Source: Kiloniellales bacterium (GTDB taxonomy: Bacteria; Pseudomonadota; Alphaproteobacteria; Kiloniellales; JAKSDN01). Taken from it: a stretch of DNA of 64,000 nt. Location: NCBI GenBank assembly GCA_041617155.1, contig JBFJPL010000003.1, positions 19,189 through 83,188 of the forward strand. The letters run 5' to 3'. Under the pieces are notes generated by a model that did no database searches, was not told where the DNA came from, and was given only the letters and a program-made list of their open reading frames with translations. Positions 2-29,485 of this stretch are shown here, in pieces; the stretch's first letter is position 1; the number at the start of each line of letters is the position of its first letter. Both the position numbers and the translations under genes were made by a program.

Positions 2-718
2 TATGCCTTCGGGGTCGACATGGGATCGAAGAGCGACGGCCGCTTCCATGCCGACGGCAGCGTTTATTCGACCGGCCTGATCGACGACTACGCCACCGCG
101 ACCCTGAGCTTCCCGGGCAACTTCGGCGGCCAGGCGAGCGGCGAGGCGATCCTCAACTGGTCGCGCAGCGTTCTGGAAAACGTGCTCGCCTCGCACCGCA
201 GCGTGCGGGTCTACAACTGCAGCGACGGCGTTCGCATCGCCGGCGCCTTGCCCAAGGTGGCGCGCGCGATCGAGTTGCCGGCCGATCCGGTCGACGCCGC
301 GGCGCTCAAGCGGAGCATCGCCGGGTCTTTGCGCGTCTTTACCGCCAAGTTGCTGCAAGACATGTGGGACGGCGACGCCCGGCTGGCCGAGGTCGAGGCG
401 GTCTTCGATCGCCTGGAAGCCGACCTACGGGACAACGAGGACGGTGCGGAGCAGGGCATCGGCTGGATCCACGCGCTGTTCGAGACCGTCGGCCGGGCCG
501 GCGAACAGAGCGCGGTCACCAAGGCCTACTTGACCGGCACGACGCTGCTGATCATCGGCTGTGTCCGCTGGTACGACCGGCGGCTCGCCGACGCCAAGGA
601 CCGGACGCGCTATCGCGAAATCGCCGCGCAACTGGTGCGTGAGACCTTCCGCGATATGAGGCGGCAGTTGACCGAGCTGGTCCGGGAAACCGACCAGCGC
701 CTGCGCGCGGTCGGCTAG
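2..718 (+). CDS. C-terminal part of a hypothetical protein whose 5' end lies upstream of the window. Flagellin-locus associated, function unknown; a Maf/DUF115-type flagellin-modification role is only a guess.
   Basis: The frame of ORF 20..718 stays open back to base 2 (YAFGVD-MGSKSDGRF...), so the gene is cut by the window edge. Its stop TAG 716-718 lies in the palindrome CTAG that also supplies the stop of the convergent gene. Confidence 0.55.
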   Translation, partial: YAFGVDMGSKSDGRFHADGSVYSTGLIDDYATATLSFPGNFGGQASGEAILNWSRSVLENVLASHRSVRVYNCSDGVRIAGALPKVARAIELPADPVDAAALKRSIAGSLRVFTAKLLQDMWDGDARLAEVEAVFDRLEADLRDNEDGAEQGIGWIHALFETVGRAGEQSAVTKAYLTGTTLLIIGCVRWYDRRLADAKDRTRYREIAAQLVRETFRDMRRQLTELVRETDQRLRAVG

Positions 719-2706
719 ACGCCGGGTTTACGTGAGGGCCCCCGCGGGGCTCCGGTGGCGCAGTGGTCGCGCCACATGGCCCGGTAGGCCTGTTCCAGAG
801 CCCGCGCGAAACCGGCGACGTCGGCCAGCGGCGAGCGGCTCACCGCCTCGCGCAGGCCGGCCCGCAGCTCGGCCAGACGGCCAAGGTCGGCCGACAGGTC
901 AGCGGCCAGGGCGGCGAGCGCCGCTGCGGATTCGGCGGCCCAGCCGGGATGGCCCGCCGCGGCGACCAGACTTGCCCCCAGTCTCGTGCCGTGCCGGTCG
1001 CCGCTCAGGACCAGCAGCGGTACGCCCATCCACAAGGCCCGGCAGTTGTCCGCCAGCTCGCCCAGCGACCCGTTGGAGAGCGCCAAGTCGACGTGCTGGT
1101 AGAAATCGAACTCGGTCTGGAAGTTGTCGGCCATGTTGACGACATCGACACGGTTGCGCAGACCCAAGTGCGCGAACAGTTCCAACGGCCGGTCGATGCA
1201 GGACTGGTCCTGGTCGAAGCGGTTGCAGATCAATAGCCTGGCCCGGTCGAGCGACCGCAGCAGCCCGGCCCAGTGCGCCACGGTCCGCGGGCCGATCGCG
1301 CCCAGCTCGCCCGAGACGCCAAGCGTCAGGTGCCCGTGCGCCGGCGCGGGCAGGGGGCCGACCGGCGGCAGCAGGCTCGGCGCGCCGTAGGCGAAAGCGG
1401 CGCGTGGCAGGCGCCACACGGCCTCGCCGGTCGCGGGCGGCGGACAGTCGGCGGGCCAGGCCAGCTCGTCGGTGACGAAGTGGTCGATGGCGGCGACGCC
1501 GGTCGGATGCGGCGTGCCGAACCAGCTGAGCGCCACGGGCGCCGGGCGCCGGGCGAAGACCAGCGGTCGGCCGCCCTGTTCGTGGCCCGACAGATCGACC
1601 GCGATGTCGATCTGGTCGCCACGCAGGATTTGCCAGACCGTCTCGTCGTCGACTCCGGTGATGTCGGTCCACTTGTCGGACCGGCGCATCAGTCCCTCGG
1701 AGGTCACGTCGCTGCGGGTGCCGTCGCTGTAGCAGAAGAGCTCGACCGCCGTGCGGTCGTGCGCCTCGAGGATCGGCTTGAGCAGGCGCATCAGGTCATT
1801 GTCGTAGAACCCGCCCGAGAGGTAGGCGACGCGCAGCCGGCGCTCCGGTTCGGCATCTGCGCCTGCCGCCGGCCGCCAGGGCTCGATCCCGCCCGCGTGG
1901 CGCTGCTGCCATTCCCGATGGGCCGCGGTGAGGGCCGCGCTGGGGGTCTCCGGATCGCGCGCCAAATCCGCCAGCCAGAGGGAGTGCAGATCGGCGCGCT
2001 CCGGCGCCAGGTCGACGGCGGTCCGGTGGCAGGCGTCGGCCTCCGCCACCCGGCCGGCGGCGCTCAGGGTTCGAGCCAGGCCACTGACGTCCTCGGCCAG
2101 CGCCACGCCGTCATGGAGCACCGCGTGGAACGCTGCCATCGACCGTTCGAGCTGGCCGTTGCCGTAGCCGGCGCGGGCCATGAGCCGCAGGGTCGGAACA
2201 TCGCCGGGCGTCAGCTCGAGCTGTTTCCCGCTGTCGGCGGCCGCGCCGGCGAAATCGCCGGCTTCGAGCTTGCGCCGCGCCCGGTCGCGATAAACATGGC
2301 GATGGGTCGTCTCCAGGTTCCTGAAGAAGCTGCCGAAGCGCGCCGGCAGCAGACCCGTGATGGTCGGATGGGGCGCCAAGGCGGTCGCCACCTTGGCATG
2401 GAACAGCCCGTCGGCGACCTTGCCCAGGCGCGCGTAGGTCGCGGCCAGCGCCTCGGCGAATTCCTGAACGCCGGGATCGATCTCGTGCGCCTTTTCCAGC
2501 AGCTTGAGCGCCTGAGTCGGTTCATCGAGATCGAGCGTGACCAGGCCGAGCAGAAAGAACGCCTCGGCACATGCCGAATGCTGTTTCAGGGCGCTTTCGC
2601 AGGCCAGGATGGCGTCGTCGTGCAGCTCGGATTCCAGGCAGGCGGCCGCCTGTCGGATGGCCGCCGCAACCGCGCTCTCGTCCCGGTCCATGCCGGTCGG
2701 TTCCAT
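715..2706 (-). CDS. TPR-repeat plus GT41 (SPINDLY/OGT-like) glycosyltransferase; FlmG-like candidate flagellin glycosyltransferase
   Basis: 663 aa counted from ATG 2706 (MEPTGMDRDES...). The N-terminal half has TPR-like helices (AEAFFLLGLVTLDLDEPTQALKLLEKAHEIDP...). The C-terminal half matches the COG3914/OGT pattern (RLRVAYLSGGF...IDIAVDLSGHEQGGRPLVFARRPAPVALSWFGTPHPTGVAAIDHFVTDE). It sits 41 nt downstream of flagellin 1 on the same strand. The upstream 350 codons of track ORF 715..3780 are an out-of-frame shadow over the flagellin. Confidence 0.8.
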   Translation of the reverse strand: MEPTGMDRDESAVAAAIRQAAACLESELHDDAILACESALKQHSACAEAFFLLGLVTLDLDEPTQALKLLEKAHEIDPGVQEFAEALAATYARLGKVADGLFHAKVATALAPHPTITGLLPARFGSFFRNLETTHRHVYRDRARRKLEAGDFAGAAADSGKQLELTPGDVPTLRLMARAGYGNGQLERSMAAFHAVLHDGVALAEDVSGLARTLSAAGRVAEADACHRTAVDLAPERADLHSLWLADLARDPETPSAALTAAHREWQQRHAGGIEPWRPAAGADAEPERRLRVAYLSGGFYDNDLMRLLKPILEAHDRTAVELFCYSDGTRSDVTSEGLMRRSDKWTDITGVDDETVWQILRGDQIDIAVDLSGHEQGGRPLVFARRPAPVALSWFGTPHPTGVAAIDHFVTDELAWPADCPPPATGEAVWRLPRAAFAYGAPSLLPPVGPLPAPAHGHLTLGVSGELGAIGPRTVAHWAGLLRSLDRARLLICNRFDQDQSCIDRPLELFAHLGLRNRVDVVNMADNFQTEFDFYQHVDLALSNGSLGELADNCRALWMGVPLLVLSGDRHGTRLGASLVAAAGHPGWAAESAAALAALAADLSADLGRLAELRAGLREAVSRSPLADVAGFARALEQAYRAMWRDHCATGAPRGPSRKPGV

Positions 2707-2747
2707 GTCGGCGTTATCCGGCTTGCTCGTGGTCGCCCATGCCACGC

Positions 2748-3569
2748 CTACCTGAAGAGCTGCAGCACCGCCTGCTCGCTCTGGCCGGCGAAGGCCAGGG
2801 CGCTGATGCCCAGCTGCTGGCGGGTCTGCAGGGCCACCAGGTTGGCGCCCTCCTCGGTAATGTCGGCCAGGGTCAGCTTGTCGGCGCCGGCTTCGAGCAC
2901 GTTGACGTAGCTTTCGTTGAAGTCGAGCCGGGTCTGCAGCAGCGCGATGTTGGAGCCCAGCGTCTGGGCCTCGCCGCTGAGCGTTTCGATGGCGCTGGTG
3001 ATCTCGGCCAGGGCGGCGGTGATCACGCTGGCCAGGCTGAAGTTGGCCGCCGAGGTCAGGGCGAGCCCCGTGCTGCCCGCCCGGACGTCGATCGAATCGA
3101 TGTTGAGCACGCTCGTGGTATCTGTGCTGAACGACACCTCGAGGGTCTCGCCGGTGCCGTTCACCAGGTTCAGGCCCTGGTAGTTGGCGTCGCCGGTCAG
3201 GTTGTCGATCTGGGTGCGCAGCTCGTTGTACTGGTCGACCAGGCTGGTCAGCTCGTTGCCGGTCGCGGTCTTGGCGGCGATCGCCAGGCCCTTCATCTGC
3301 TGCACGATGGCGTCGACCGACTCGATAGCTTCCAGCGCCGTGGTGACCGAGGAGATCGACTGGTCGATGCCCTCCTTCTTCTCGTCCATGTCGCGCGCCC
3401 GGTCGCTGATCGCCTTCGATTCGAAGAAGATGCGGGCGTCGTCGATCGGGCTGGCAACCCGGAGCCCGGACGACAGCCGGTTCTGGGTGCGCGAGATCAG
3501 ACGCTCGGTGCTCAACAGCGCGAGCAGGTTCTCGCGCACGGCGGCGGAAAGGGAAATCTCGGAGGCCAT
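2748..3569 (-). CDS. fliC: Flagellin (short alphaproteobacterial type), paralog 1
   Basis: 273 aa. Conserved flagellin N-terminus (NRLSSGLRVASPIDDARIFFE) and C-terminus (LVALQTRQQLGISALAFAGQSEQAVLQLFR), with a Ser/Thr-rich centre. GGAG lies about 10 nt upstream of the ATG. Confidence 0.95.
   Translation of the reverse strand: MASEISLSAAVRENLLALLSTERLISRTQNRLSSGLRVASPIDDARIFFESKAISDRARDMDEKKEGIDQSISSVTTALEAIESVDAIVQQMKGLAIAAKTATGNELTSLVDQYNELRTQIDNLTGDANYQGLNLVNGTGETLEVSFSTDTTSVLNIDSIDVRAGSTGLALTSAANFSLASVITAALAEITSAIETLSGEAQTLGSNIALLQTRLDFNESYVNVLEAGADKLTLADITEEGANLVALQTRQQLGISALAFAGQSEQAVLQLFR
2772..2812. repeat. 41-nt stretch identical between the 3' ends of the two flagellin genes (partner copy at 3866-3906)
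   Basis: ctgctcgctctggccggcgaaggccagggcgctgatgccca is present at both positions. The surrounding roughly 130 nt differ at only scattered sites. Confidence 0.9.
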
Positions 3570-3628
3570 CGTCCCGTCTCCATACTGGAAGGGTTGCTAC
3601 GAACGGTCTTGTTCTTCGATGGCCTGGT

Positions 3629-3644
3629 TGCAATCGCTGTACCA
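3629..3644 (-). promoter_or_regulatory. sigma54-type -24/-12 promoter of flagellin 1
   Basis: The minus strand reads TGGTACAGCGATTGCA against consensus TGGCAC-N5-TTGCW, with correct GG-N10-GC spacing. It lies about 60 nt upstream of ATG 3569. Confidence 0.7.
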
Positions 3645-3719
3645 CAAGAAGTATGCAATTAAAACAGATAGTTAAAGATATCTGGTGAATTTCGTGGCGG
3701 TCATGCTTGCCGGTCGGGA

Positions 3720-3754
3720 GGCAGGCATTGCCGGGACCGATGGCAAAAGTTACC
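3720..3754. promoter_or_regulatory. Candidate enhancer (bEBP/FlbD-type) dyads upstream of the flagellin-1 sigma54 promoter
   Basis: GGCAGGCATTGCC (3720-3732) and GGCAAAAGTTACC (3742-3754) both follow the pattern GGCA-N5-T(G/A)CC. They lie 75-110 bp upstream of the promoter. Confidence 0.5.
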
Positions 3755-3778
3755 GGCGCCGCGGGGCGGCGCAGGGGC

Positions 3779-3807
3779 AAAAAAAGGGGGGCGCTTGCGC
3801 GCCCCCC
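3779..3807 (-). terminator. Rho-independent terminator after flagellin 2
   Basis: The minus strand reads GGGGGGCGC-GCAA-GCGCCCCCC followed by TTTTTTT, a perfect 9-bp GC stem. It lies 35 nt after the flagellin-2 stop and separates it from the flagellin-1 enhancer/promoter. Confidence 0.85.
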
Positions 3808-3841: not shown

Positions 3842-4663
3842 CTATCGGAACAGCGCCAACACCGACTGCTCGCTCTGGCCGGCGAAGGCCAGGGCGCTGA
3901 TGCCCAACTGCTGGCGAGTCTGCAATGCCACCAGGTTGGCGCCTTCCTCGGTGATGTCGGCCAAGGTCAGCTTGCCGGCGCCTTCCTCGAGAACGTTGAC
4001 GTAGTTCACGGTGAAGTCGAGGCGGGTCTGTAACAAGGCCACGTTCGAACCGATCTCCTGGCCCTCGCCTTCGAGGGTCTCGACCGCGGCATCGAGTTCC
4101 ACGATCGCCGCATCGATGTTCGAGGTGAGGCTGAAGTTCGCCGCCGAGGTGATGTCGAGGCCGGTCGTGTCGGTGGTCAGGTCGACCGAATCGATGGCCA
4201 GCTGGCTCGAGGTCAGGTTGCTGAACTCGACGGTCAGCGTCTCGCCGGTGCCGTTGACCAGGTTGAGGCCCTGGAAGGTGGCGTCGGCCGCCAGGTTGTC
4301 GATCTGGGTCAACAGCTCGTTGTACTGCGAGACCAGCGATGCCAGCTCGGTGCCGGTCGCCGATTTGGCGGCGATCGCCAGACCCTTGGCCTGACGGACG
4401 ACCGAGTCGATCGTCTCGACCGCCTCGAGGGCGGCGCTGACCGAAGAGATCGCCTGATCGATGCCGCTCTTCTTTTCGTCGAGCGCGCTGGCCCGGTCGC
4501 TGAGCGACTTGGCCTCGAAGAAGACACGCGCATCGTCGACCGGGCTCGCGATGCGCAGGCCGGACGACAGACGGTTGTTGGTGCGGTTGATCAGGTCGCT
4601 GGTGTTGCCCAGCGCGAGCACGCTGGCGCGTGCGGCTGCGGAAAGGGTGATTTCACTTGCCAT
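3842..4663 (-). CDS. fliC: Flagellin, paralog 2
   Basis: 273 aa, colinear with paralog 1 without indels. Same N and C termini (NRLSSGLRIASPVDDARVFFE ... ALAFAGQSEQSVLALFR). GGAG lies upstream of the ATG. Confidence 0.95.
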   Translation of the reverse strand: MASEITLSAAARASVLALGNTSDLINRTNNRLSSGLRIASPVDDARVFFEAKSLSDRASALDEKKSGIDQAISSVSAALEAVETIDSVVRQAKGLAIAAKSATGTELASLVSQYNELLTQIDNLAADATFQGLNLVNGTGETLTVEFSNLTSSQLAIDSVDLTTDTTGLDITSAANFSLTSNIDAAIVELDAAVETLEGEGQEIGSNVALLQTRLDFTVNYVNVLEEGAGKLTLADITEEGANLVALQTRQQLGISALAFAGQSEQSVLALFR

Positions 4664-16492: not shown

Positions 16493-17035
16493 ATGTCGGA
16501 TCAAGCGGCGACCGAAGACATTGGCGGCGGCATGGACGCCGAGTCGAAGCCCGACGCGGGCGGGACGAACGGCAAGTCGATTGTGCTTTTCGTCGTGCTG
16601 CCGATCCTTTTGCTGTTCGGCGCGGTGCTCGGCGCCTACTTCATGGGCATGCTCGACCCGCTCCTGGGCGTACCGCCCAAACAGCCGAAGGCCGAGCAGG
16701 CCGCGGCACCCATGCCCGAGGTGAACCAGTCGGCGGTGTTCTACGATCTGCCGGAAATGCTGGTGAACCTCAACGCCGGCGGACGCAAGGCCTCCTACCT
16801 GAAGATTTCGGTCAGCCTGGAGCTGCAAAGCGAGGCCGCCATGGAGCAGGTCAAGCAGGTGCTGCCGCGCGTCATCGACAACTTCCAGGTCTATCTGCGC
16901 GAGCTGCGGATCGAGGATCTGCGCGGCTCGGCCGGCCTGCAGCGCCTGCGCGAAGAGCTGCTGCTGCGCGTCAACGCCGCGGTCCGGCCGGTCGTGGTCA
17001 AGGACGTGCTGTTCAAGGAAATGCTCGTCCAATAG
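16493..17035 (+). CDS. fliL: Flagellar basal-body-associated protein FliL
   Basis: 180 aa with a single TM. AVFYDLPEMLVNLNAGGRKASYLKISVSLEL...VLFKEMLVQ is typical of FliL. Confidence 0.9.
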   Translation: MSDQAATEDIGGGMDAESKPDAGGTNGKSIVLFVVLPILLLFGAVLGAYFMGMLDPLLGVPPKQPKAEQAAAPMPEVNQSAVFYDLPEMLVNLNAGGRKASYLKISVSLELQSEAAMEQVKQVLPRVIDNFQVYLRELRIEDLRGSAGLQRLREELLLRVNAAVRPVVVKDVLFKEMLVQ

Positions 17036-17078: not shown

Positions 17079-18080
17079 ATGGCTGAACCAGAGGCGGCGA
17101 CGGACAAAGACGCCGGTGGCTCGACCAAGATCCTCAACCAGGCCGAGATCGACAGCCTGCTCGGCGGCCACGACGGCCTGGACGCGCGTTCGGGTATCGC
17201 GGCGATCGTCGATTCGGCGCTCGTCTCCTACGAGCGCCTGCCCATGCTCGAGGTCGTATTCGACCGCCTCGTGCGCATGATGTCGACCTCGCTGCGCAAC
17301 TTCACGTCCGACAACGTCGAGGTCCACCTGGAGTCGATCTCCTCCTCGCGCTTCGGCGACTACCTCGATTCGATTCCTCTGCCCGCCATGCTGACGGTGT
17401 TCAAGGCGGAGGAATGGGACAACTTCGGCCTCATGGCGGTCGACTCCTCGCTGATCTATTCGATTGTCGACGTTCTGTTGGGCGGCCGGCGCGGCTCCGC
17501 CGCCGTACGCATGGAAGGCCGGCCCTACACCACGATCGAGCGCAACCTGGTCGAGCGCATGGTGCACGTCGTCCTGGCCGACCTATCGGCCGCTTTCGAC
17601 CCCTTGTCGCCGGTCACCTTCCGTTTCGAGCGGCTGGAATCCAACCCGCGCTTTGCCACCATTGCTCGGCCGGCCAACGCCACCGTCGTCGCCCAGCTGC
17701 GGGTCGAGATGGAGGATCGTGGCGGCCGCTTCGAGCTGATGCTGCCCTACGCCACCCTGGAGCCGGTCCGCGAGCTCTTGCTGCAGATGTTCATCGGCGA
17801 GAAGTTCGGCCATGACTCCATTTGGGAAAGCCATCTGACCACCGAGCTGTGGCAGACCGAGCTGCCGATCCAGGCGGTGCTCGACGAAGTCGAGGTGCAC
17901 TTGGGCGAAGTCATCGGCTGGACCGAAGGCAGCCGCCTCGAACTCAACTGCGGCCCGAATTCGAAGGTCGAGCTGCGGTGCGGCGACATCGCCATGTTCG
18001 AGGGCCAAATGGGACGAAAGGGATCGAACATCGCAGTGCGGGTCGCCGGCAAGCTGACCGGCAACGGGGAGTCCACCTGA
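17079..18080 (+). CDS. fliM: Flagellar motor switch protein FliM
   Basis: 333 aa. It has the N-terminal CheY-P-binding-type motif ILNQAEIDSLLG and central FliM core similarity (LEVVFDRLVRMMSTSLRNF...). Confidence 0.9.
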   Translation: MAEPEAATDKDAGGSTKILNQAEIDSLLGGHDGLDARSGIAAIVDSALVSYERLPMLEVVFDRLVRMMSTSLRNFTSDNVEVHLESISSSRFGDYLDSIPLPAMLTVFKAEEWDNFGLMAVDSSLIYSIVDVLLGGRRGSAAVRMEGRPYTTIERNLVERMVHVVLADLSAAFDPLSPVTFRFERLESNPRFATIARPANATVVAQLRVEMEDRGGRFELMLPYATLEPVRELLLQMFIGEKFGHDSIWESHLTTELWQTELPIQAVLDEVEVHLGEVIGWTEGSRLELNCGPNSKVELRCGDIAMFEGQMGRKGSNIAVRVAGKLTGNGEST

Positions 18081-18592
18081 TGGATCTGTTGCCGTTCGAA
18101 CACTGGAGCCTATTGGCCGACGCGGTTCTCGCGGTCCTCCTGGTCGCGACCATCGCCTATGCCGCGATACTCGAGCGCAAGCTCTCGGGCCTGCGCGCCG
18201 CGAAGCAGGAAATGGCGGAGCTGGTCGGCCGCTTCACCGAGGCGACCAAGCGCGCGGAGAACGGCTTGGCCGAGATCAGGCAGACCGCGGAGGAAACCGG
18301 CCGAACCCTGCAGCAGGCCCTGGAGAAGGGCAACAGCTTGGCCGACGACCTGGTTTTTCTGGTTGAACGCGGCGATGCCGTTGCCGGCCGGCTCGAGCGG
18401 GGCGCCGCAAAGGGCCGTGGCCGAGCGACCGCCGAGCCACCGCCGGCCGGCCCACGGTCGGTCGCCAAAGGCCCCGGGGGAACCGCTGCAAAGGCGCCCG
18501 CTCCGGCGGCCGCCGAGGACGACGCCACATCGAGCCGCAAGCGCACGCCGGAGCAGTCCGCTCTGATGGCGGCCCTGCGGGCCATGCGCTAG
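18080..18592 (+). CDS. Hypothetical membrane-anchored coiled-coil protein with an Ala/Pro-rich tail (flagellar cluster, unknown function)
   Basis: 170 aa from ATG 18080, which overlaps the fliM stop (TGATG). It has an N-terminal TM (WSLLADAVLAVLLVATIAYAAIL), then a helical segment and a low-complexity tail. The 86 codons upstream of it in track ORF 17822..18592 overlap fliM out of frame. Confidence 0.7.
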   Translation: MDLLPFEHWSLLADAVLAVLLVATIAYAAILERKLSGLRAAKQEMAELVGRFTEATKRAENGLAEIRQTAEETGRTLQQALEKGNSLADDLVFLVERGDAVAGRLERGAAKGRGRATAEPPPAGPRSVAKGPGGTAAKAPAPAAAEDDATSSRKRTPEQSALMAALRAMR

Positions 18593-18610: not shown

Positions 18611-19252
18611 ATGAAGCTACGCCTTCTGCCTTTGCTGATCTTTGCGGCCGGCACCGGAGTCCTGTTCCACCTGGGCGATTTGTGGCGGGGCTTCGGCCCC
18701 TTGGCCCAGGTCGCGGCGGCGGAGGGCGAAGCGAAGCCCGCCAAGGCGGCGAAAGCCGGCGCTCGCTACGAGCCAGCCGGGCCGAAAACGGCCGGCGAGA
18801 TGTCGCCTCGGACCGCCACCTTGGCCAGCGACCCCTTCAATCTGACCGATGAAGAGATCGACCTGCTGCAGAAACTGGCCGAGCGCCGGTCAGAACTCGA
18901 GAGCCGTGCGGCGGAGTTGGAACAGCGCCGTACTCTCTTGGAAGCGGCCGAGCGCCGCATCGACGAGAAGATCGGCGAGCTGGAGGCGATCCGGAAAAAC
19001 ATCGAGGGCCTGCTGGTGCGCCACGACGAGCAGGAAGAGGCGCAACTCAACAGCCTGGTCAAGATCTACGAGAGCATGAAACCCAAGGATGCCGCGCGGA
19101 TTTTCGAAGAGCTCGACATGGTGGTGCTGCTCGATGTGATCGAGCGCATGAAGGAACGCAAGACCGCGCCGATCCTGGCCAAGATGAACCCGCGGCGCGC
19201 CAAGGCGATCACCTTGGAGCTGGCTCAGCGCCGCGGCCTGCCGGGCTCCTAG
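18611..19252 (+). CDS. MotE/FlbB-like protein (MgtE-N-like helical domain; putative periplasmic stator chaperone)
   Basis: 213 aa with a signal/TM segment, a coiled coil (EIDLLQKLAERRSELESRAAELEQRRTLLEAAERRIDEKIGELEAIRKNIE), then LVKIYESMKPKDAARIFEELDMVVLLDVIERMKERKTAPILAKMNPRRAKAIT. This pattern matches COG3334/MotE-type proteins. Confidence 0.55.
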   Translation: MKLRLLPLLIFAAGTGVLFHLGDLWRGFGPLAQVAAAEGEAKPAKAAKAGARYEPAGPKTAGEMSPRTATLASDPFNLTDEEIDLLQKLAERRSELESRAAELEQRRTLLEAAERRIDEKIGELEAIRKNIEGLLVRHDEQEEAQLNSLVKIYESMKPKDAARIFEELDMVVLLDVIERMKERKTAPILAKMNPRRAKAITLELAQRRGLPGS

Positions 19253-19257
19253 TCCGG

Positions 19258-19947
19258 ATGGAGCGCGCCGGGCAAACCTCACCGGCCGAGCGTGGCGACC
19301 CGAACATCGTCGCCTTGCTCGGGCTCAAACTGCTGCTTTTGGGGTTTTTCATTCTGTTGAACGCGCTGTCCCACTATGAGGAGGACCGGACTCGACGGGT
19401 TCTGCAAAGCGTCGACCAGGCCTTCAACGGCCGCATCGAAGCCTTGAAAAGCGAGGCTGAACATTCCGCTGCCCTGGGGCCGCTGAACGGAACCGAGGCG
19501 ATGATCGACTCGGTGGGGGCGCTCTTTACTTCGCTGATACCGGCGGTTGAGCGAGAGCTATCGGCCGCCGGCACGCGCCTGCGCCTGGAGCTGCCGGTCG
19601 CTGCCCTGTTCCGACAGGACAGCGTCGCCCTGCAGTCGGGTCGCGGCGTGCTGATGAAACGCTTCGCCGAAGCCTTGACCCAAAACGGCCGCGGCCGACT
19701 CAACTATGAGGTCGAGCTCTTGCACGGCATAAGGCGCGAGGCGATCTCGGACCTGACCGAAGCCGGCGCCGACTCGCTGGAAGTTCGGCGCATCGCCGCC
19801 CTGGTCCTTGCCCTGACCAAACGCGGCGTGCCCGCGGACAAGCTGTCCGTCGGCGTCATCCCCGGCCGGCCCGGCAAGGTCCAGATGGTGGTGCAAACCT
19901 ACCAGCGGGCGGGCCCGGCATTCGACTACGGGGAGCTGGCGCGATGA
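19258..19947 (+). CDS. Degenerate MotB/OmpA-like paralog (single TM, no conserved plug-region Asp)
   Basis: 229 aa. The TM segment IVALLGLKLLLLGFFILLNALS aligns with the MotB-like AWMLTFTDLVALMLTFFVMLFAMS of the next gene but has K where that has D. The C-terminal LRLELPVAALFRQDSVALQSGRGVL...SLEVRRIAALVLALTKRGVPADKLSV parallels the OmpA-like VLIALPGDLLFAPGSTELATTGRQAL...ELSLARALRVAQVLRDSGY. The GHxD motif is replaced by LLHG. Confidence 0.6.
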   Translation: MERAGQTSPAERGDPNIVALLGLKLLLLGFFILLNALSHYEEDRTRRVLQSVDQAFNGRIEALKSEAEHSAALGPLNGTEAMIDSVGALFTSLIPAVERELSAAGTRLRLELPVAALFRQDSVALQSGRGVLMKRFAEALTQNGRGRLNYEVELLHGIRREAISDLTEAGADSLEVRRIAALVLALTKRGVPADKLSVGVIPGRPGKVQMVVQTYQRAGPAFDYGELAR

Positions 19948-20735
19948 CGGAGCCAGGGAGTGTCGAAGCGGACGGCGCCGAACCGGGGGCCGCCAATCGC
20001 GCTTGGTGGCTCGCGCTATCGAACCATGCAGCGGCCGCGCAGCGTGAAGCGCCTTTGGCGCGCGGCTCTGCCTGGATGCTCACCTTTACCGACCTGGTCG
20101 CCCTGATGCTGACCTTCTTCGTCATGCTCTTCGCCATGTCCAAGGTGGAAAAGCGCGAATGGGAGAACCTGACCGACGCTCTGGCGCCGAAGCTGAACGT
20201 CGTGAGCAAGCTGTCCATCGCCCTGCCGACAGAGTCGCGCGATGTCGACGCGGTCGAGACCTTGCCGTCGGTCGATTTGAACTATCTGGCGGCCTTGTTG
20301 AAACAGGACATGGCCGATGATCCCCTGCTCGGCCTGGGCATCCTGCGCCGCTTGGAGCGGCGTGTCCTGATCGCGCTGCCGGGCGATCTGCTCTTTGCGC
20401 CCGGATCGACCGAGCTCGCCACGACCGGGCGGCAAGCCTTGACCGGCTTCGTCGGCCTGCTGCGCCACGTGAACAACCGGATCGAAGTCATGGGCCACGC
20501 CGATCCGCGCCAACCGATTGCCGGCTTTGCCTCCAATTGGGAACTCTCCCTGGCGCGGGCCCTGCGGGTCGCCCAGGTGTTGCGCGATTCCGGGTACCGG
20601 GGCCAGGTGGTCGCACGCGGCTTCGGCCATTCACGCTTCGAGTCGCTTTCGCCGCGGCTCCGGCCGGCGCAGCGCTTGACCTTGGGACGCCGGGTCGAAC
20701 TGGTGATACACGACGACGCCGGAGAAGCACGCTGA
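19944..20735 (+). CDS. motB: MotB-like flagellar stator protein (OmpA-family C-terminal domain)
   Basis: 263 aa. It has the MotB N-terminal signature (WMLTFTDLVALMLTFFVMLFAMS) and an OmpA-like domain (LFAPGSTELATTGRQALTGFVGLLRHVNNRIEVMGHADPRQ...NWELSLARALRVAQVL). ATGA start/stop overlaps occur on both sides. Confidence 0.8.
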   Translation: MTEPGSVEADGAEPGAANRAWWLALSNHAAAAQREAPLARGSAWMLTFTDLVALMLTFFVMLFAMSKVEKREWENLTDALAPKLNVVSKLSIALPTESRDVDAVETLPSVDLNYLAALLKQDMADDPLLGLGILRRLERRVLIALPGDLLFAPGSTELATTGRQALTGFVGLLRHVNNRIEVMGHADPRQPIAGFASNWELSLARALRVAQVLRDSGYRGQVVARGFGHSRFESLSPRLRPAQRLTLGRRVELVIHDDAGEAR

Positions 20736-23700
20736 TGGCTCGGCGGCAGGCAAAGATCGCCGCGCTTCTCGGCGGGTTTCTGGTCGCGGCGCTGCCGGTC
20801 CCGGCGGCCGTGGCCGAACCGCCGGACCAAACGGCGCCCGCGCTCAACCTGCGCAGCGGCGAACACGAAGGTTTCAGCCGCCTGGTGTTCGATTGGGATG
20901 CGCCGGTGACCTACAGCATCGAGGAGACGCCGAGCGGTGCCACGGTGTCTTTCGACCGGCCGGCCCGACTCGACCTGAAGAGCTACCGAAAAGATCCCTC
21001 GCCGGGCATTCTGGACCTCACCTTGGGCCCAGGCGACGACGGCCTCACGGTTGCCCTGCGGTTGCCCGAGGGCGCCAACCTGCGCCATTTTCTCAGCGGC
21101 CCCAAGGTGGTCATCGACGTGCTCGCCCCGGGCGCCGGCGCGGCCGAAGCGCAGGCCGATCAGGAAAGCGCCGCCGCCGGGGCGGCGCCCGAATCGCTCG
21201 GCAATTCCATCCTGAGCGATGCCGTGGAAGCCGCCGTGGCCCTGACCGGTGACACGCGGGCGAACCGCGCCGGCACCCGCCCGACCCGGCTCGGCGTTGC
21301 ACCCAAGGCCGCCGAACCGAAAGCGCCGCCGCGCCGCGCCGCGCCGCGTCCGGCGACCTCAAGCAAGGCATCGAGACGAAAACTGGTCGTCACCTACGAG
21401 CGGCCGCCCCTGCCGGCGGCAATGCCGGTGCCCGGTATGACGGCGCCGCGCTACCGCCCTCTGGCGATCCGCCTGAAGGGCATCGCCGGCGTAGCCGCCG
21501 CCGCCTTTCGCCGTGGCCAGCACCTATGGCTGGTGTTCGATTTGCCGGCCCGGGTCAACATCGCCAGGCAGATTCAGCGGATCGCGCCAGAACTGGCGCC
21601 GGTGTTGCAGCTCGAGCGACCAGACATCGTGGCCCTGCGCTTGACTGTGCCGCTGGGTGTGGCGCCGAAGCTGCGGCGCGACGGCACCGACTGGCTGGTC
21701 GACCTGCGGCCGCGCCTGATCCGGCCGGAAAAGCCGGCGACCCTCGACCTTCGCGCCGGCCATGACGGCCCTCGGCTTGTCTTTCCGGTTACCGGCGCGG
21801 GCCGGCTGATCCAGCTGGACGACCCGGATATGGGCGACCGGGTTCACGTGCTGCCGGTTTCGCTTGCCGATTTCGGCCTGGCAACGGCCCGCGATTTCCC
21901 ACAGTTCCAGGCGCTCGCCACCTATCAAGGACTGGCCATCGTGCCGCGGTCCGACAGGCTGTGGATCACGCTCGACAAGGACGCCTTGAAGATCACCTCG
22001 TCGGCCGGCCTTCTGGTCACCGCGGGATTGGACACCGACGCCGAGCCGAACGAGGAGGAGACGGTCGCGGGCAAGCGACGGCTGTTCGACCTGGCGGCCT
22101 GGCGCGAGGTCGACGGCGACGACTTCGAAACCAATCGAAAACTGCTGCAGCGCGCGATTATCGCGCCGGGCGACGCCCGGAGTCTCGATCTCGCGCGGCT
22201 CCGGCTGGCACGATTCTTTTTCGCCCATGGCTTGGCCACCGAGACCTTGTCGGTGATCAGGCTGATGGCGCGTGAGCGCGGGCGTTTCGCCGCCGATCCG
22301 GAGATGATCCTGCTCGAGGGCGCCGCTGCTTTCCTGGCGCAGGACTTTCACGCCGCAGCGGCCAGCCTTTCCCACCCGGCCCTGGAGGGCGAGGCCGAGG
22401 CCGTGATCTGGCGCGCCGCCATGTCGGCGGCGGCCCAGGACTGGCCCTATGCCGCGGAGCTGTTCGAGCAAGGCAAGGCGACGATCCAGGACTACCCGCG
22501 CGCGGTGCGCGTCCGGCTGCATCTCTTGGCGGCCGAGGCGCGCCTGGCGATCGGCGACACCGGCGGCGCCAGCTTCTACCTGAAACAGGCGCTTGAGGCT
22601 CAATCGACCGATTTCGAGCGGGCCCAGATCGATTTCCTCGAAGGCCGGCGCCTGCTGGCAGACCAGCGTCCGGAGCGCGCGCTGCCCCTGTGGCGGCGTG
22701 TCGCCGCCTCGACGCACCGGCCGTCCCAGGCAAGGGCGCGCCTGGCCCTGGTCAACCAAGGCCTGAAAGCGGGCACGCTCGAACCGGCCTCCGCGATCGC
22801 CGAACTGGAGCGTCTGCGCTTTGTCTGGCGGGGCGACGAGTTCGAGGCGGCGCTGCTTGAACGCCTGGGCCGGCTCTACGCCGACGCGGGCGACTACCGG
22901 GATGCCCTGGTCGCCCTGCGTCAGGCGGCTTCCCACTTCCCCGGTTCGGTCCGCGCCGAAGCGGCGGCGCGCCATATGCGCAAGCTCTTCGCCTCGCTTT
23001 ACCTGGGCGACAAGCGCGCGAGCCTGTCGCCGCTGGCGGCCTTGGCGCTATACCGCGAGTTCGAGGAACTGACGCCTGCCGCGCAGGACGGCAACCGCCT
23101 GATCGACAACCTGGTCGACCGGCTGGTCGAGATCGATCTTCTGGGCCAGGCGGCGGAACTGCTGGAAGACCAGATCGCCCGCCGCCTGGCCGGCGAAAAG
23201 CGGGCGCGGGCCGGCGCGCGTCTGGCGCTGGTCCGGCTGCTCGACCGCCAGCCTGGGCACGCGCTCGAGGCGCTGAACTCGAGCGCCGCCAAGAAACTGC
23301 CCAGCGCCGTCGAGCGCCGGCGCCGCCACCTCAGGGCGCGCGCGCTTGCCGGGCTGCACCGCGGGCGCGACGGGCTGGCCGTGCTGGCCGGCGACGAGAG
23401 CGAGGATGCACGCAAGCTGCGCGCGGAGATCCTGTGGCAGCTGCGCGACTGGCCGGCGGCGGCCGTCGCGCTGGCCCGGCTGATCCCGAGAGATCCGCCC
23501 AAGGAGCGAGCGCTCGATGCCGTCGAAACCCAGACCGTGATCGACCTGGCGACCGCCTATACCCTGGCAGGCGACCGCCGGGCGCTCGACGATCTGGCGC
23601 GGCGCTTCGGCAAGGCCATGGCCGAGAGCGGCAAGGCCGACAGCTTTACCCTGCTGACCAGCGACTTCGGCAAGGCCAACTTGGCCGCGGTGGCCGACGA

Positions 23701-23785
23701 GCTGGCCGGGGTCGAACGGATCCAAGCCTTCATCGCGAGCTATCGCGCGCGGGTCCGCAAGGACGGCCTCAGCAACCTGAACTAG
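20735..23785 (+). CDS. Large secreted AMIN-like plus TPR-repeat protein (flagellar cluster, unknown function)
   Basis: 1016 aa from ATG 20735, which overlaps the motB stop (TGATG). It has a signal peptide (AALLGGFLVAALPVPAAVA), an AMIN-like segment (LNLRSGEHEGFSRLVFDWDAPVTYSIEETPSGATVSFDRPARLDL...VVIDV), an Ala/Pro-rich linker, and a long C-terminal helical-repeat region rich in A/L/R. The track ORF start 20537 is an out-of-frame overlap with motB. Confidence 0.75.
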   Translation: MARRQAKIAALLGGFLVAALPVPAAVAEPPDQTAPALNLRSGEHEGFSRLVFDWDAPVTYSIEETPSGATVSFDRPARLDLKSYRKDPSPGILDLTLGPGDDGLTVALRLPEGANLRHFLSGPKVVIDVLAPGAGAAEAQADQESAAAGAAPESLGNSILSDAVEAAVALTGDTRANRAGTRPTRLGVAPKAAEPKAPPRRAAPRPATSSKASRRKLVVTYERPPLPAAMPVPGMTAPRYRPLAIRLKGIAGVAAAAFRRGQHLWLVFDLPARVNIARQIQRIAPELAPVLQLERPDIVALRLTVPLGVAPKLRRDGTDWLVDLRPRLIRPEKPATLDLRAGHDGPRLVFPVTGAGRLIQLDDPDMGDRVHVLPVSLADFGLATARDFPQFQALATYQGLAIVPRSDRLWITLDKDALKITSSAGLLVTAGLDTDAEPNEEETVAGKRRLFDLAAWREVDGDDFETNRKLLQRAIIAPGDARSLDLARLRLARFFFAHGLATETLSVIRLMARERGRFAADPEMILLEGAAAFLAQDFHAAAASLSHPALEGEAEAVIWRAAMSAAAQDWPYAAELFEQGKATIQDYPRAVRVRLHLLAAEARLAIGDTGGASFYLKQALEAQSTDFERAQIDFLEGRRLLADQRPERALPLWRRVAASTHRPSQARARLALVNQGLKAGTLEPASAIAELERLRFVWRGDEFEAALLERLGRLYADAGDYRDALVALRQAASHFPGSVRAEAAARHMRKLFASLYLGDKRASLSPLAALALYREFEELTPAAQDGNRLIDNLVDRLVEIDLLGQAAELLEDQIARRLAGEKRARAGARLALVRLLDRQPGHALEALNSSAAKKLPSAVERRRRHLRARALAGLHRGRDGLAVLAGDESEDARKLRAEILWQLRDWPAAAVALARLIPRDPPKERALDAVETQTVIDLATAYTLAGDRRALDDLARRFGKAMAESGKADSFTLLTSDFGKANLAAVADELAGVERIQAFIASYRARVRKDGLSNLN

Positions 23786-23801: not shown

Positions 23802-24542
23802 CTAGGTGCCGTAGCTTTGCACCAGGGAGCCGGCGACCAGGTACCAGCCGTCGACCAGCACGAAGAAGATCAGCTTGAAGGGCAGGGAGATCATGATCGG
23901 CGGCAGCATCATCATGCCCATGGACATGAGGATCGAGGCCACCACCATGTCGATCACCAGGAACGGCAGGAACAAAAGGAAACCGATCTCGAAGGCGCGC
24001 TTCAGCTCGCTGATCATGAAGGCCGGGATGAGCGCACGCATCGGCGTCTCCTCCGGCGCCGATATCGCGTCGATCTCGGCCATGTCCATGAACAGCTTGA
24101 GGTCCTGCTCGCGCACGTGGGCCAGCATGAAACTGCGCACCGGACCGGTCGCGAGGTCGAGCGCCTGCATCTCGGTCACGTCCTCGGCCACCAGGGGTGC
24201 GATGGCCTCATCATAGATCAGTTCCAGAGTCGGCATCATGACGAAGGCCGTGAGGAACAGCGCAAGGCTGATCAACACCGAATTGGGCGGCGTTTGCTGG
24301 ATGCCGAGCGCGCTGCGCAGAAACGACAGGACAACGACGATCCGGGTGAACGAGGTCATCATCACCAGGATCGACGGCGCCAGGCTGAGGATGGTGATAA
24401 GTGCGACCAGCTGGATGATCCGGCCGGTTGCCGAGCCGCCTTCGGTGCCGAGGTCCAGATTGAGGCTTTGCGCCGCCGCCGGCTCGGCGCCCGCCAGGAG
24501 CGCGGCGATCAGCCCGCCGAGCAGCCAGAGGAGAGGTCTCAT
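23802..24542 (-). CDS. fliP: Flagellar export apparatus protein FliP
   Basis: 246 aa. LAPSILVMMTSFTRIVVVLSFLRSALGIQQTPPNSVLISLALFLTAFVM is the FliP signature. Confidence 0.95.
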   Translation of the reverse strand: MRPLLWLLGGLIAALLAGAEPAAAQSLNLDLGTEGGSATGRIIQLVALITILSLAPSILVMMTSFTRIVVVLSFLRSALGIQQTPPNSVLISLALFLTAFVMMPTLELIYDEAIAPLVAEDVTEMQALDLATGPVRSFMLAHVREQDLKLFMDMAEIDAISAPEETPMRALIPAFMISELKRAFEIGFLLFLPFLVIDMVVASILMSMGMMMLPPIMISLPFKLIFFVLVDGWYLVAGSLVQSYGT

Positions 24543-24865: not shown

Positions 24866-25141
24866 TCAGGGCTGATTCTCTGGCTGCCCGCCGGCCTGGT
24901 TCAGCAGTTCGAGGACGGCGGCGGCCAGGCGGTCGAGCGCGTCGCGCAGATCCCACAGCTTGGGCGCCAGTGCCACGGCCTGCTCCCGCGGCTGGTTTTC
25001 GAGGTTCGTGCAGATATCTCGGACCCGCTGGCCGAAGCCGGACAGCTCCACCAGGCGGCCGGCGCTGATCTCGGCGTGGGCCGCGGCAACCGCCTGGCCG
25101 AGCCGGTCGATCTCCGCCGCGATCGCGGTGGTGGGGGTCAC
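24866..25141 (-). CDS. Hypothetical small helical protein (flagellar export operon)
   Basis: 91 aa. The GTG start overlaps the stop of the upstream FlhB-C-like gene (GTGA). It sits 9 nt upstream of fliO. I recognise no family. Confidence 0.55.
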   Translation of the reverse strand: MTPTTAIAAEIDRLGQAVAAAHAEISAGRLVELSGFGQRVRDICTNLENQPREQAVALAPKLWDLRDALDRLAAAVLELLNQAGGQPENQP

Positions 25142-25479
25142 GGCGCGGCCTCGCCGGCGGCGGCCTGAGAGGCGCGATAGACGTAGGTCAGGATCTCGGC
25201 CACGGCGGCCAAGGCGGGCAGCGGCACTTCGCTGTCGATCTCCACCGCCGCCAGAATCTCCGCCAGATCGGCGTCGGTCCGCACCTTGACGCCCCGGTCG
25301 AAGGCGATCGCGAGTATCTGCTCGGCCAGGCGGCCTTGCCCCTTGGCGACGACGCGCGGCCCCTGGGCGGCGCCGGGGTCCTGCTGCAGGGCGATGGCCA
25401 GCGGACGGGGCCCGCCGGAATCTGGTGTCGAAGAGATCGGCTTGTCGGCCACGGCTGGCACCCGGTCCTCGGCTGTCAT
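25138..25479 (-). CDS. Stand-alone FlhB C-terminal-domain-like protein (EscU/YscU/FlhB-CC family, COG2257-like)
   Basis: 113 aa. PLAIALQQDPGAAQGPRVVAKGQGRLAEQILAIAFDRGVKVRTDADLAEILAAVEIDSEVPLPALAAVAEILTYVYRA aligns with the post-NPTH part of the bona fide FlhB in this window (HFAVALAYELGSAGAPKVTAKGADTLALRMRELAEEYAVPVVENPPLARALYGSVELDQEIPPEHYKAVAEIIGYVMRL). Confidence 0.8.
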   Translation of the reverse strand: MTAEDRVPAVADKPISSTPDSGGPRPLAIALQQDPGAAQGPRVVAKGQGRLAEQILAIAFDRGVKVRTDADLAEILAAVEIDSEVPLPALAAVAEILTYVYRASQAAAGEAAP

Positions 25480-28378: not shown

Positions 28379-29485
28379 ATGGCAGACGAACGTCCCGACG
28401 AGTCGCAAAAGACCGAGGAGCCGACCCAAAAGCGCCTGCTGGAGGCGCAGCAGAAGGGCCAGGTGGCCAAGTCCCAGGAGGTCGGCCACTGGTTCATGAT
28501 CCTGGCCTTCGCGATCATGGTCGGATTCCTGGCGCCCGGTGTCGCCCGGGACATCGCCGATGCGCTTTACGGCTTGGTCGCGCGGCCCCATGCGATCCGG
28601 GTCGACGGCGCCGGCATCCAGGACCTGCTCGGCGAACTGACGGCCAACCTGGGCCTGGCGCTCGCCGTCCTGGTCCTGCTGGCCATGGTCGCCGCTCTGG
28701 CATCGGGCATGCTGCAGACCGGGTTCATCCTGACCACCGAACCGATCAAGCCCAAACTGGAACGGATCTCGCCGGCCAGCGGATTGAATCGGATGTTCTC
28801 CGCGCGCGCCCTGGTCGAGTTCCTGAAAGGCGTTGCAAAGCTTTCGATCGTCGGCTGCGTCATCGCCTTGTTGCTGTGGCCGGAGCGGCGCCTGATCGCC
28901 GACCTGGTGACCATGGACCTGGTCCAGTTCCTGGCGGTGATCCAATCTCTGGCTTTCCGGGTCCTGCTTGCCGTGTTGGCCGTCATGACGGTGATTGCCG
29001 GACTGGATTTCCTGTTCCAGAAGCAGCAGCACGCCAAACAGATGCGCATGTCGAAGCAGGAAGTGAAGGACGAGTTCAAGCAGACCGAAGGCGATCCCAT
29101 GGTCAAGGCTCGGCTGCGGCAGATTCGCATGGAGCGCGCCCGGCAACGTATGATGGCCGCCGTGCCGGAGGCCGATGTGGTGATCGCCAATCCGACCCAC
29201 TTCGCGGTCGCGCTTGCTTACGAACTCGGCTCCGCCGGGGCGCCGAAGGTGACGGCCAAAGGCGCCGATACGCTTGCCCTGCGCATGCGCGAGCTGGCCG
29301 AGGAGTACGCTGTGCCGGTGGTCGAAAACCCGCCCCTGGCGCGCGCGCTCTACGGCTCGGTCGAGCTCGATCAGGAGATCCCGCCCGAACATTATAAGGC
29401 GGTCGCCGAAATCATCGGGTATGTCATGCGCCTAAAGGGTAAGCTACCCCAGCAGCGGGCCGGCTTGCAGCGGGGCCGTGAGTGA
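28379..29485 (+). CDS. flhB: Flagellar export switch protein FlhB
   Basis: 368 aa. It starts ESQKTEEPTQKRLLEAQQKGQVAKSQEV, has 4 TM segments, and carries the autocleavage motif VVIANPTHFAVAL. Confidence 0.95.
   Translation: MADERPDESQKTEEPTQKRLLEAQQKGQVAKSQEVGHWFMILAFAIMVGFLAPGVARDIADALYGLVARPHAIRVDGAGIQDLLGELTANLGLALAVLVLLAMVAALASGMLQTGFILTTEPIKPKLERISPASGLNRMFSARALVEFLKGVAKLSIVGCVIALLLWPERRLIADLVTMDLVQFLAVIQSLAFRVLLAVLAVMTVIAGLDFLFQKQQHAKQMRMSKQEVKDEFKQTEGDPMVKARLRQIRMERARQRMMAAVPEADVVIANPTHFAVALAYELGSAGAPKVTAKGADTLALRMRELAEEYAVPVVENPPLARALYGSVELDQEIPPEHYKAVAEIIGYVMRLKGKLPQQRAGLQRGRE

Follow-up and report, generated by a model that had tools for sequence, protein, structure and literature searches.

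The flagellar motor of Campylobacter carries 17 periplasmic spokes of PflA, a protein with an N-terminal beta-sandwich, an unstructured linker and a superhelix of 16–17 tetratricopeptide repeats (TPRs), and these spokes together with a rim of PflB position the stators (PMC12222027). A 2025 preprint reported that dimers of FlgY, an MgtE_N/ARM-like protein, form an E-ring that contacts PflA, whose sandwich was named PflA-AMIN, and that PflB has an N-terminal transmembrane anchor and an antiparallel pair of beta-strands within its TPR array (PMC11870540). PflA is needed for stator occupancy (PMC12222027, PMC11870540, PMC12054838). Here, we describe a gene for a 1016-residue protein (hereafter the target) that is translationally coupled to motB in a flagellar cluster of a Kiloniellales bacterium. 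It lies in a stretch of 64,000 nucleotides, analysed as a whole and referred to as the window (GenBank assembly GCA_041617155.1, contig JBFJPL010000003.1, positions 19,189 to 83,188 of the forward strand). We consider it probable (roughly 0.78) that the target is a Sec-exported, soluble periplasmic scaffold of the flagellar motor, belonging to the Caulobacter FssB (CC_2058) family and acting as a PflA/MotK-type partner of the MotE/FlgY E-ring protein.

From structure and genomic context, MotE, FlbB and CC_2059 have been proposed to be homologues of FlgY, and MotC, MotK and CC_2058 to be PflA-like (PMC11870540). A study of H. pylori (PMC12054838) and a 2026 review (PMC13023049) agree on these groupings, and the review treats MotE, FlgY and CC_2059 as equivalents. 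MotK, from the Fla2 system of Cereibacter sphaeroides, is a periplasmic protein in which a Sec signal and an AMIN-like N-terminus precede a disordered, Pro-rich linker and then TPR-like helices. Flagella assemble without it but do not rotate; it binds both MotE and MotB2, its placement at the flagellated pole requires MotA2/MotB2, and it was reported to be without BLAST similarity to the Caulobacter family (Velez-Gonzalez et al., 2024, PMC10954123). MotC of Sinorhizobium meliloti is periplasmic, TPR-rich, associated with MotB and a partner of MotE (PMC13023049). FssB (CC_2058/CCNA_02137) is a Sec-signal TPR protein that acts in a stator-dependent signalling pathway, and its deletion leaves flagella assembled yet paralysed, as in a motB mutant (Hershey et al., 2021, PMC7885107). 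The stator-scaffold class, its phenotype and its proposed homologies have been published between 2021 and 2026. The initial annotation of the window had hypothesised a stator scaffold for the target, which fits the paralysis reported for FssB, the binding of MotK to MotB2 and MotE, and the spokes formed by PflA, and which is already in print for those relatives.

Gene structure and family assignment

The target occupies an open reading frame (ORF) of 20537–23785, in which the ATG at 20735 gives a product of 1016 amino acids. The features around its start are as follows.

20735–23785, plus strand: target gene, encoding a predicted secreted AMIN-like and TPR protein, FssB (CC_2058)-type and PflA-like (from ORF and translation, homologues and the AlphaFold2 model)
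19944–20735, plus strand: motB ORF, whose stop overlaps the target start (Pfam MotB_plug, E 4.5e-14; Pfam OmpA, E 3.8e-11)
20721–20724, plus strand: Shine–Dalgarno-like GGAG within the 3′-end of motB, 10 nucleotides before the target ATG (sequence reading)

The TGA of motB (20733–20735) shares one base with the target ATG (TGATG), so that the overlap of start and stop codons was read correctly from the outset; the upstream ORF is identified as MotB by its MotB_plug and OmpA domains. Many NCBIfam MotB/MotD/MotS models also match its product, which keeps the conserved Asp of TFTDL.

The target is a real gene. A public protein collection holds an identical 1016-residue protein (P0001), and a word-indexed search returned 80 relatives besides it; repeating that search with a family profile yielded no further members. 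In an exhaustive search of cluster representatives, the family profile matched 3843 clusters at 50% identity with E ≤ 1e-30, and for this reason we dismiss a match by chance. The 150 matches listed from the exhaustive search are all close relatives, with no bridge to Caulobacter among them. Relatives of the target are encoded in at least 556 genome stretches. Long antisense ORFs of up to 483 residues lie within the gene (e.g., 21524–22975, minus strand); these are typical at 69–70% G+C and are no evidence for extra genes.

The link to Caulobacter comes from P0056, which matches the target at E 2.1e-84 in the word-indexed search and is a Caulobacter protein, 94% identical to a protein of Caulobacter sp. 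RHG1 and 78–80% identical to proteins of C. segnis. Orthologues from C. segnis and Caulobacter sp. were used as stand-ins for the CB15 sequence in the comparison with FssB. At the locus of the C. segnis protein P0249, the genes run flgH-flgA-flgG-flgF, followed divergently by fliL-fliM-DUF6468, a 270-residue motE-like gene, P0249 itself, and zwf-pgl-edd-glk. We take the place of P0249, between the motE-like gene and zwf-pgl-edd-glk, to be that of CC_2058, the Entner–Doudoroff genes of CB15 being CC_2054–CC_2057. BLASTP aligns target and P0249 collinearly over 809 residues (target residues 227–1008; 28% identity, E 5e-83), a span that takes in AMIN-like repeat 2, the third beta domain and all of the solenoid described below; a separate alignment covers the N-terminal AMIN region (E 0.002). 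On sequence and synteny, we therefore assign the target to the FssB family.

Database names suggest something else for this family. NCBI and UniRef list the Caulobacter homologues P0231, P0237, P0241, P0281 and P0311 as ‘endoglucanase’ or ‘lipopolysaccharide assembly protein LapB’. These names are wrong: Pfam scans of the target and its homologues found no glycosidase domain. The names are nevertheless one of three points in favour of reading the target as a general envelope TPR protein (LapB/YbgF-like) or a septal or polar peptidoglycan-targeting factor that lies in a flagellar cluster fortuitously, the others being that AMIN domains target division-site peptidoglycan in AmiC and that NCBIfam gives a weak PorW/SprE match on the target (1e-05, 24 bits against a cut-off of 250), which we deem irrelevant. 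Such a reading strikes us as extremely improbable: the names are automatic and unsupported, flagellar synteny is kept across orders, and deletion of fssB specifically paralyses the flagellum (PMC7885107).

Domain layout and structural relatives

A full AlphaFold2 model of the target was built on 36 homologues, with a mean predicted local distance difference test (pLDDT) score of 82.4 and a predicted TM-score (pTM) of 0.63. The layout that it gives, together with profile comparisons, is as follows.

20735–20818, plus strand: signal peptide, residues 1–28, with MARRQAK, a hydrophobic core and AVA↓EP (the only hydrophobic window; low pLDDT)
20840–21124, plus strand: AMIN-like beta-sandwich 1, residues 36–130 (pLDDT ~90; Pfam AMIN-like in homologues; Foldseek matches to PilQ and AmiC)
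21137–21376, plus strand: disordered Ala/Pro/Arg-rich linker, residues 135–214 (pLDDT <50; composition)
21452–21718, plus strand: AMIN-like repeat 2, residues ~240–328 (hhalign against AMIN-like 1; pLDDT 85–93)
21731–22009, plus strand: third beta domain, residues ~333–425, with a conserved DPxxGD (confident strands in the models)
22091–23764, plus strand: TPR-like alpha-solenoid, residues 453–1010 (DSSP of the model, profile matches, Foldseek)

The sole hydrophobic segment of the protein is residues 6–29, and Cys is absent, so that the target is not a lipoprotein. By rules on hydrophobicity, the AVA↓E site and Cys content, the target is a predicted Sec/SPI-type secreted protein that would carry no membrane anchor. 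In the model, residues ~218–425 are rich in beta-strands. Within this region, residues 236–330 repeat the N-terminal domain (hhalign probability 98.1%, E 8.6e-14, 89 columns), while residues 331–428 proved unrelated to either AMIN-like copy by hhalign. For this third beta domain, Foldseek matches were limited to generic beta-sandwiches, small heat-shock proteins and GyrA fragments. The solenoid comprises 28 helices of at least 8 residues, or ~14 pairs, by DSSP of the model.

Most relatives are longer (1100–1200 residues) and have one extra N-terminal copy, in the order AMIN-AMIN-linker-AMIN-beta-TPR; the target and its closest relatives lost the first AMIN copy or never had it. The linker differs in length between homologues. 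Conservation is concentrated in repeat 2, with the nearly invariant AAAFRRG..LWLVFD and an invariant W320, in the DPxxGD of the third beta domain, and in the WRGDxFE (698–704) and ELTPxxxxG (778–786) motifs of the solenoid.

Both profile and fold methods back the AMIN-like and TPR assignments that the initial annotation had made from the sequence alone. The Pfam AMIN-like family PF24837 is above its cut-off in the homologues P0010 (29.9 bits) and P0038 (32.2 bits), with only positions 4–37 of the 129 in the profile matched, and the family profile gives a marginal match to the AMIN region of Neisseria PilQ, 4av2 (E 0.057), in a sequence search of the PDB. When residues 36–452 were modelled separately and compared with the PDB by Foldseek, the AMIN array of Myxococcus PilQ (3jc8_Qa) was the only significant match (E 3.4e-5, 403 columns), and the AMIN domain of AmiC (4bin) and PilQ 4av2 matched at a probability of 0.99 with a root-mean-square deviation of ~4 Å over ~105 columns. 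For the solenoid, the family profile matches the TPR structures EMC2 (2e-7) and a designed CTPR (5e-5), and the AlphaFold2 model matches the TPR superhelices of OGT, Ctr9 and CTPR at E 1e-8 to 1e-5. The Sec-type signal peptide also stands, on the rule-based reading of residues 1–28. Other details of the annotated layout needed revision. Its Ala/Pro/Lys-rich linker is indeed rich in Ala (29%) and Pro (10%), but Arg (10%) takes the place of Lys; its middle beta-rich region exists and resolves into the second AMIN-like repeat and a further beta domain; and its helical repeats are present but extend over ~560 residues in the model rather than ~450.

The best match of the full model in the PDB is chain K of 9HMF (9hmf_K), from the C. 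jejuni periplasmic scaffold, at a Foldseek E-value of 1.4e-9 over 895 aligned columns with 10% identity. From its length of 773 residues, we take this chain to be PflA 16–788. The features of PflB were not found in the target, which has no hydrophobic segment past the signal peptide and, in the model, no strands in the helical region 453–1010. PflB, which the initial annotation had chosen as the analogue, is a membrane-anchored rim protein; PflA is the closer structural analogue, being secreted, having an N-terminal beta-sandwich, a linker and a TPR region, and giving the top Foldseek match.

The target could instead be a PflB-like rim or ‘cage’ component, with a peripheral ring around the stators in place of radial spokes. 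In favour are its richness in TPRs, its link to the stator and an extra AMIN repeat and beta domain that could give lateral contacts; the cluster in the window also showed no PflB-like gene of its own, so that one protein might do both jobs. We judge this very unlikely, however. PflB has a transmembrane anchor and an internal beta pair (PMC11870540), whereas the target has only a cleavable-looking signal peptide, its N-terminal beta-sandwich and linker are as in PflA, and its top structural match is the PflA chain. The term ‘cage’, used in the initial annotation, is not supported; no PflB, PflC, PflD or cage genes were seen in the flagellar cluster of the window, and spoke or stator scaffold is the better term.

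The flagellar operon and the proposed role

On the plus strand, the genes run in the order fliL, fliM, DUF6468/PflI-like, MotE/FlgY-like, MotB paralogue, motB and target, with fliP convergent beyond the target.

16493–17035, plus strand: fliL, head of the operon (NCBIfam FliL, 1.2e-41)
17079–18080, plus strand: fliM (Pfam FliM, 5.8e-64)
18077–18592, plus strand: DUF6468/PflI-like gene, its ATG overlapping the fliM stop (Pfam DUF6468, 1.5e-21)
18611–19252, plus strand: gene for a MotE/FlgY/FlbB-like periplasmic coiled-coil and MgtE_N-type protein, the proposed E-ring partner (Pfam MgtE_N, 3.4e-6; NCBIfam collar_FlbB, 4.8e-9)
19258–19947, plus strand: divergent MotB paralogue of 229 residues, in the same operon directly upstream of motB (hhalign of its family against MotB; weak MotB_plug match)
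23802–24542, minus strand: fliP, the convergent neighbour that bounds the target downstream (Pfam FliP, 1.6e-80)

Gene order was compared by tblastn of the window neighbours against 80 related loci, which include Rhodospirillales, Kiloniellales, Pelagibius, Thalassospiraceae, Tistlia, Dongiaceae, Roseospira and others. The order fliL-fliM-...-motE-...-motB-homologue is kept in most of them. Where both genes are retained, motB lies upstream of the homologue in every case (69/69 loci) and directly upstream, with an overlap or a gap of at most 25 nucleotides, in all but one (68/69); the in-frame start of the homologue overlaps the motB stop by 1 or 4 nucleotides in 57 of the 69, and a gap of at most 20 nucleotides separates them in 10 more. 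The co-occurrence with flagellar genes, which the initial annotation had named as a check together with that with motB, is very strong by these counts. The fliP neighbour recurs in many of the related loci.

Two distant loci are arranged differently. In Afipia (L081), the homologue directly follows motE, and in another distant lineage (L082) it follows motE-cheY-cheZ, with no motB nearby in either; both loci share fliL-fliM-DUF6468-motE ahead of the homologue. The universal linkage is therefore to fliL-fliM-pflI-motE, and coupling to motB is lineage-specific. In most related loci, cheY and cheZ lie between the motE-like gene and the MotB paralogue (e.g., L006 7360–7812 and 7837–8493; L082 6876–7918). 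The corresponding gap in the window is 5 nucleotides (19252–19258), and the pair was either lost or never present here.

Translation so tightly coupled to that of motB would equally fit a dedicated MotB chaperone that is not itself a structural part. TPR arrays frequently serve as chaperones or adaptors, the original description of MotE was as a chaperone of the TPR protein MotC (cited in PMC13023049), and a stability dependence links MotE and MotK (PMC10954123). A chaperone role nonetheless seems to us quite unlikely. MotK sits at the flagellated pole (PMC10954123) and PflA is visibly a structural spoke (PMC12222027); some 1000 residues with wall-binding-type domains are large for such a role, and in Afipia and Caulobacter the homologue is not beside motB.

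We thus return to the scaffold reading, in which the periplasmic location, binding partners, spoke geometry and loss-of-function phenotype of the target would follow those of its characterised relatives. The TPR superhelix may form a radial arm whose inner end touches a MotE/FlgY-like ring around the MS-ring, while the AMIN-like beta-sandwiches, on their flexible linker, would occupy the outer end, where they would bind either peptidoglycan or adjacent parts of the scaffold or stator. This mechanism of a TPR arm with an AMIN tether is proposed because of the findings on PflA, the FlgY E-ring and MotK. The arm would recruit MotA/MotB stators or hold them in the active, wall-anchored state, so that flagella would be built but would not rotate in its absence. 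Through the start/stop overlap in the operon, the target would be made together with MotB, probably in matched amounts.

Several points weigh against this reading. Foldseek TM-scores to PflA are low (0.15–0.18), which makes them weak as proof of homology, although such values are expected for flexible multi-domain solenoids. Sequence searches of the PDB with phmmer and the family profile gave no PflA, PflB or MotK-type chain, only generic TPR matches and the marginal one to PilQ. On the target itself, both Pfam AMIN-like PF24837 (E 0.0044, 17.5 bits against a cut-off of 27) and Pfam TPR_2 (E 0.0023, 18.4 against 27 bits) are sub-threshold. PflA and MotK have one sandwich, whereas the target has two AMIN-like repeats (three in most relatives) and a further beta domain, and its geometry may differ accordingly. 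To our knowledge, peptidoglycan binding by the AMIN-like domains of PflA/MotK/FssB proteins has never been demonstrated. The role of the target is read by analogy from characterised relatives outside Rhodospirillales. No motA was found in the flagellar cluster (window positions 7000–29500), and MotA must be encoded elsewhere. The MotB-like neighbour without the conserved Asp could also change the picture.

That neighbour, the 229-residue paralogue, is related to MotB over its full length at the family level (hhalign probability 98.3%, E 2.2e-14, 207 columns), but where MotB has TFTDL, it reads ‘L.L.LL.LAFFI’ and thus does not have the conserved transmembrane (proton-binding) Asp. Pfam found no OmpA match on it. 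The gene is kept in most Rhodospirillales and Kiloniellales loci and is absent from the Afipia and Caulobacter loci. One could imagine that these two orders have a distinct stator module, composed of an FssB/PflA-like protein with two or three AMIN domains, lock-step translation with MotB and the Asp-less paralogue. The dead MotB-like subunit and the multi-AMIN spoke would then form a static docking site bolted to the wall, or a heteromeric stator, and fix the number or radius of active stators. We offer this as a speculative and rather unlikely extension; we know of no flagellar motor described with an Asp-less MotB-like subunit and a multi-AMIN spoke.

The flagellar cluster of the window extends beyond these genes. 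Beside the convergent fliP lies fliO, with fliR and flhB farther on, and flgK, flgI, flgH, flgA, flgG and flgF are found on the minus strand of the window. At the DUF6468 gene, the ORF list gives misleading alternative frames (17822–18592 and 18159–18566), the DNA being GC-rich. A protein of 1021 residues with TPR and GT41 (O-GlcNAc-transferase-like) regions (715–3780, minus strand) lies among flagellin genes, next to the one at 3842–4663 (minus strand), and is a candidate FlmG-like flagellin glycosyltransferase. The match of a 113-residue ORF (25138–25479, minus strand) to FlhB is confined to the C-terminal domain (Bac_export_2 positions 258–335, E 6e-15); the ORF is separate from the full-length flhB at 28379–29485 and may encode a stand-alone FlhB-C-like protein.

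Comparison with known systems

The comparison adds sequence-level evidence that the FssB family reaches across Rhodospirillales, Kiloniellales and Hyphomicrobiales. The architecture common to this family and Campylobacter PflA backs the recent proposal that E-ring-plus-spoke stator scaffolds have an ancient origin and occur widely beyond beta- and gamma-proteobacteria, and the direct coupling to motB in the target lineage gives a stator-linked role independent support from genomic context. Specific to this lineage are the tandem AMIN repeats, the tight motB coupling and the adjacent Asp-less MotB-like gene; the repeats and the paralogue are the only parts that could lead to something new.

The target shares the beta-sandwich fold of the AMIN domains of PilQ and AmiC, and its repeats are arranged in tandem like those of Myxococcus PilQ by Foldseek. 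In PilQ and AmiC, these domains are joined to a secretin or an amidase, whereas in the target they are joined to a TPR solenoid.

With FssB, the target has in common a Sec signal, the second AMIN-like repeat, the beta domain, the TPR motifs and a place after fliL-fliM-pflI-motE. It differs in that two genes, the MotB paralogue and motB, part its gene from motE, and in its translational coupling to motB. The Caulobacter motA and motB genes lie elsewhere in the genome.

MotC was considered as a family for the target and rejected: NCBIfam gave no MotC-type match, and MotC, at ~430 residues, has no AMIN domain, whereas the target has 1016 residues and AMIN-like domains. By description (PMC10954123), MotK shares with the target a Sec signal, an N-terminus of AMIN-like type, a disordered linker rich in Pro and a TPR-like region, and its gene is the last in a fliL-pflI-motE-mot(A/B) operon similar to that of the target. 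MotK is much shorter (652 residues) and its gene follows motA, whereas the target gene follows motB.

PflA, which is N-glycosylated as a feature of its own, is likewise secreted and has an N-terminal AMIN-type beta-sandwich, a linker and a TPR superhelix, of 14–17 repeats across the two proteins (~14 pairs in the target). Both proteins are also accompanied by a FlgY/MotE-type partner, which for the target would be the product of the gene at 18611–19252, with its MgtE_N and FlbB collar matches.

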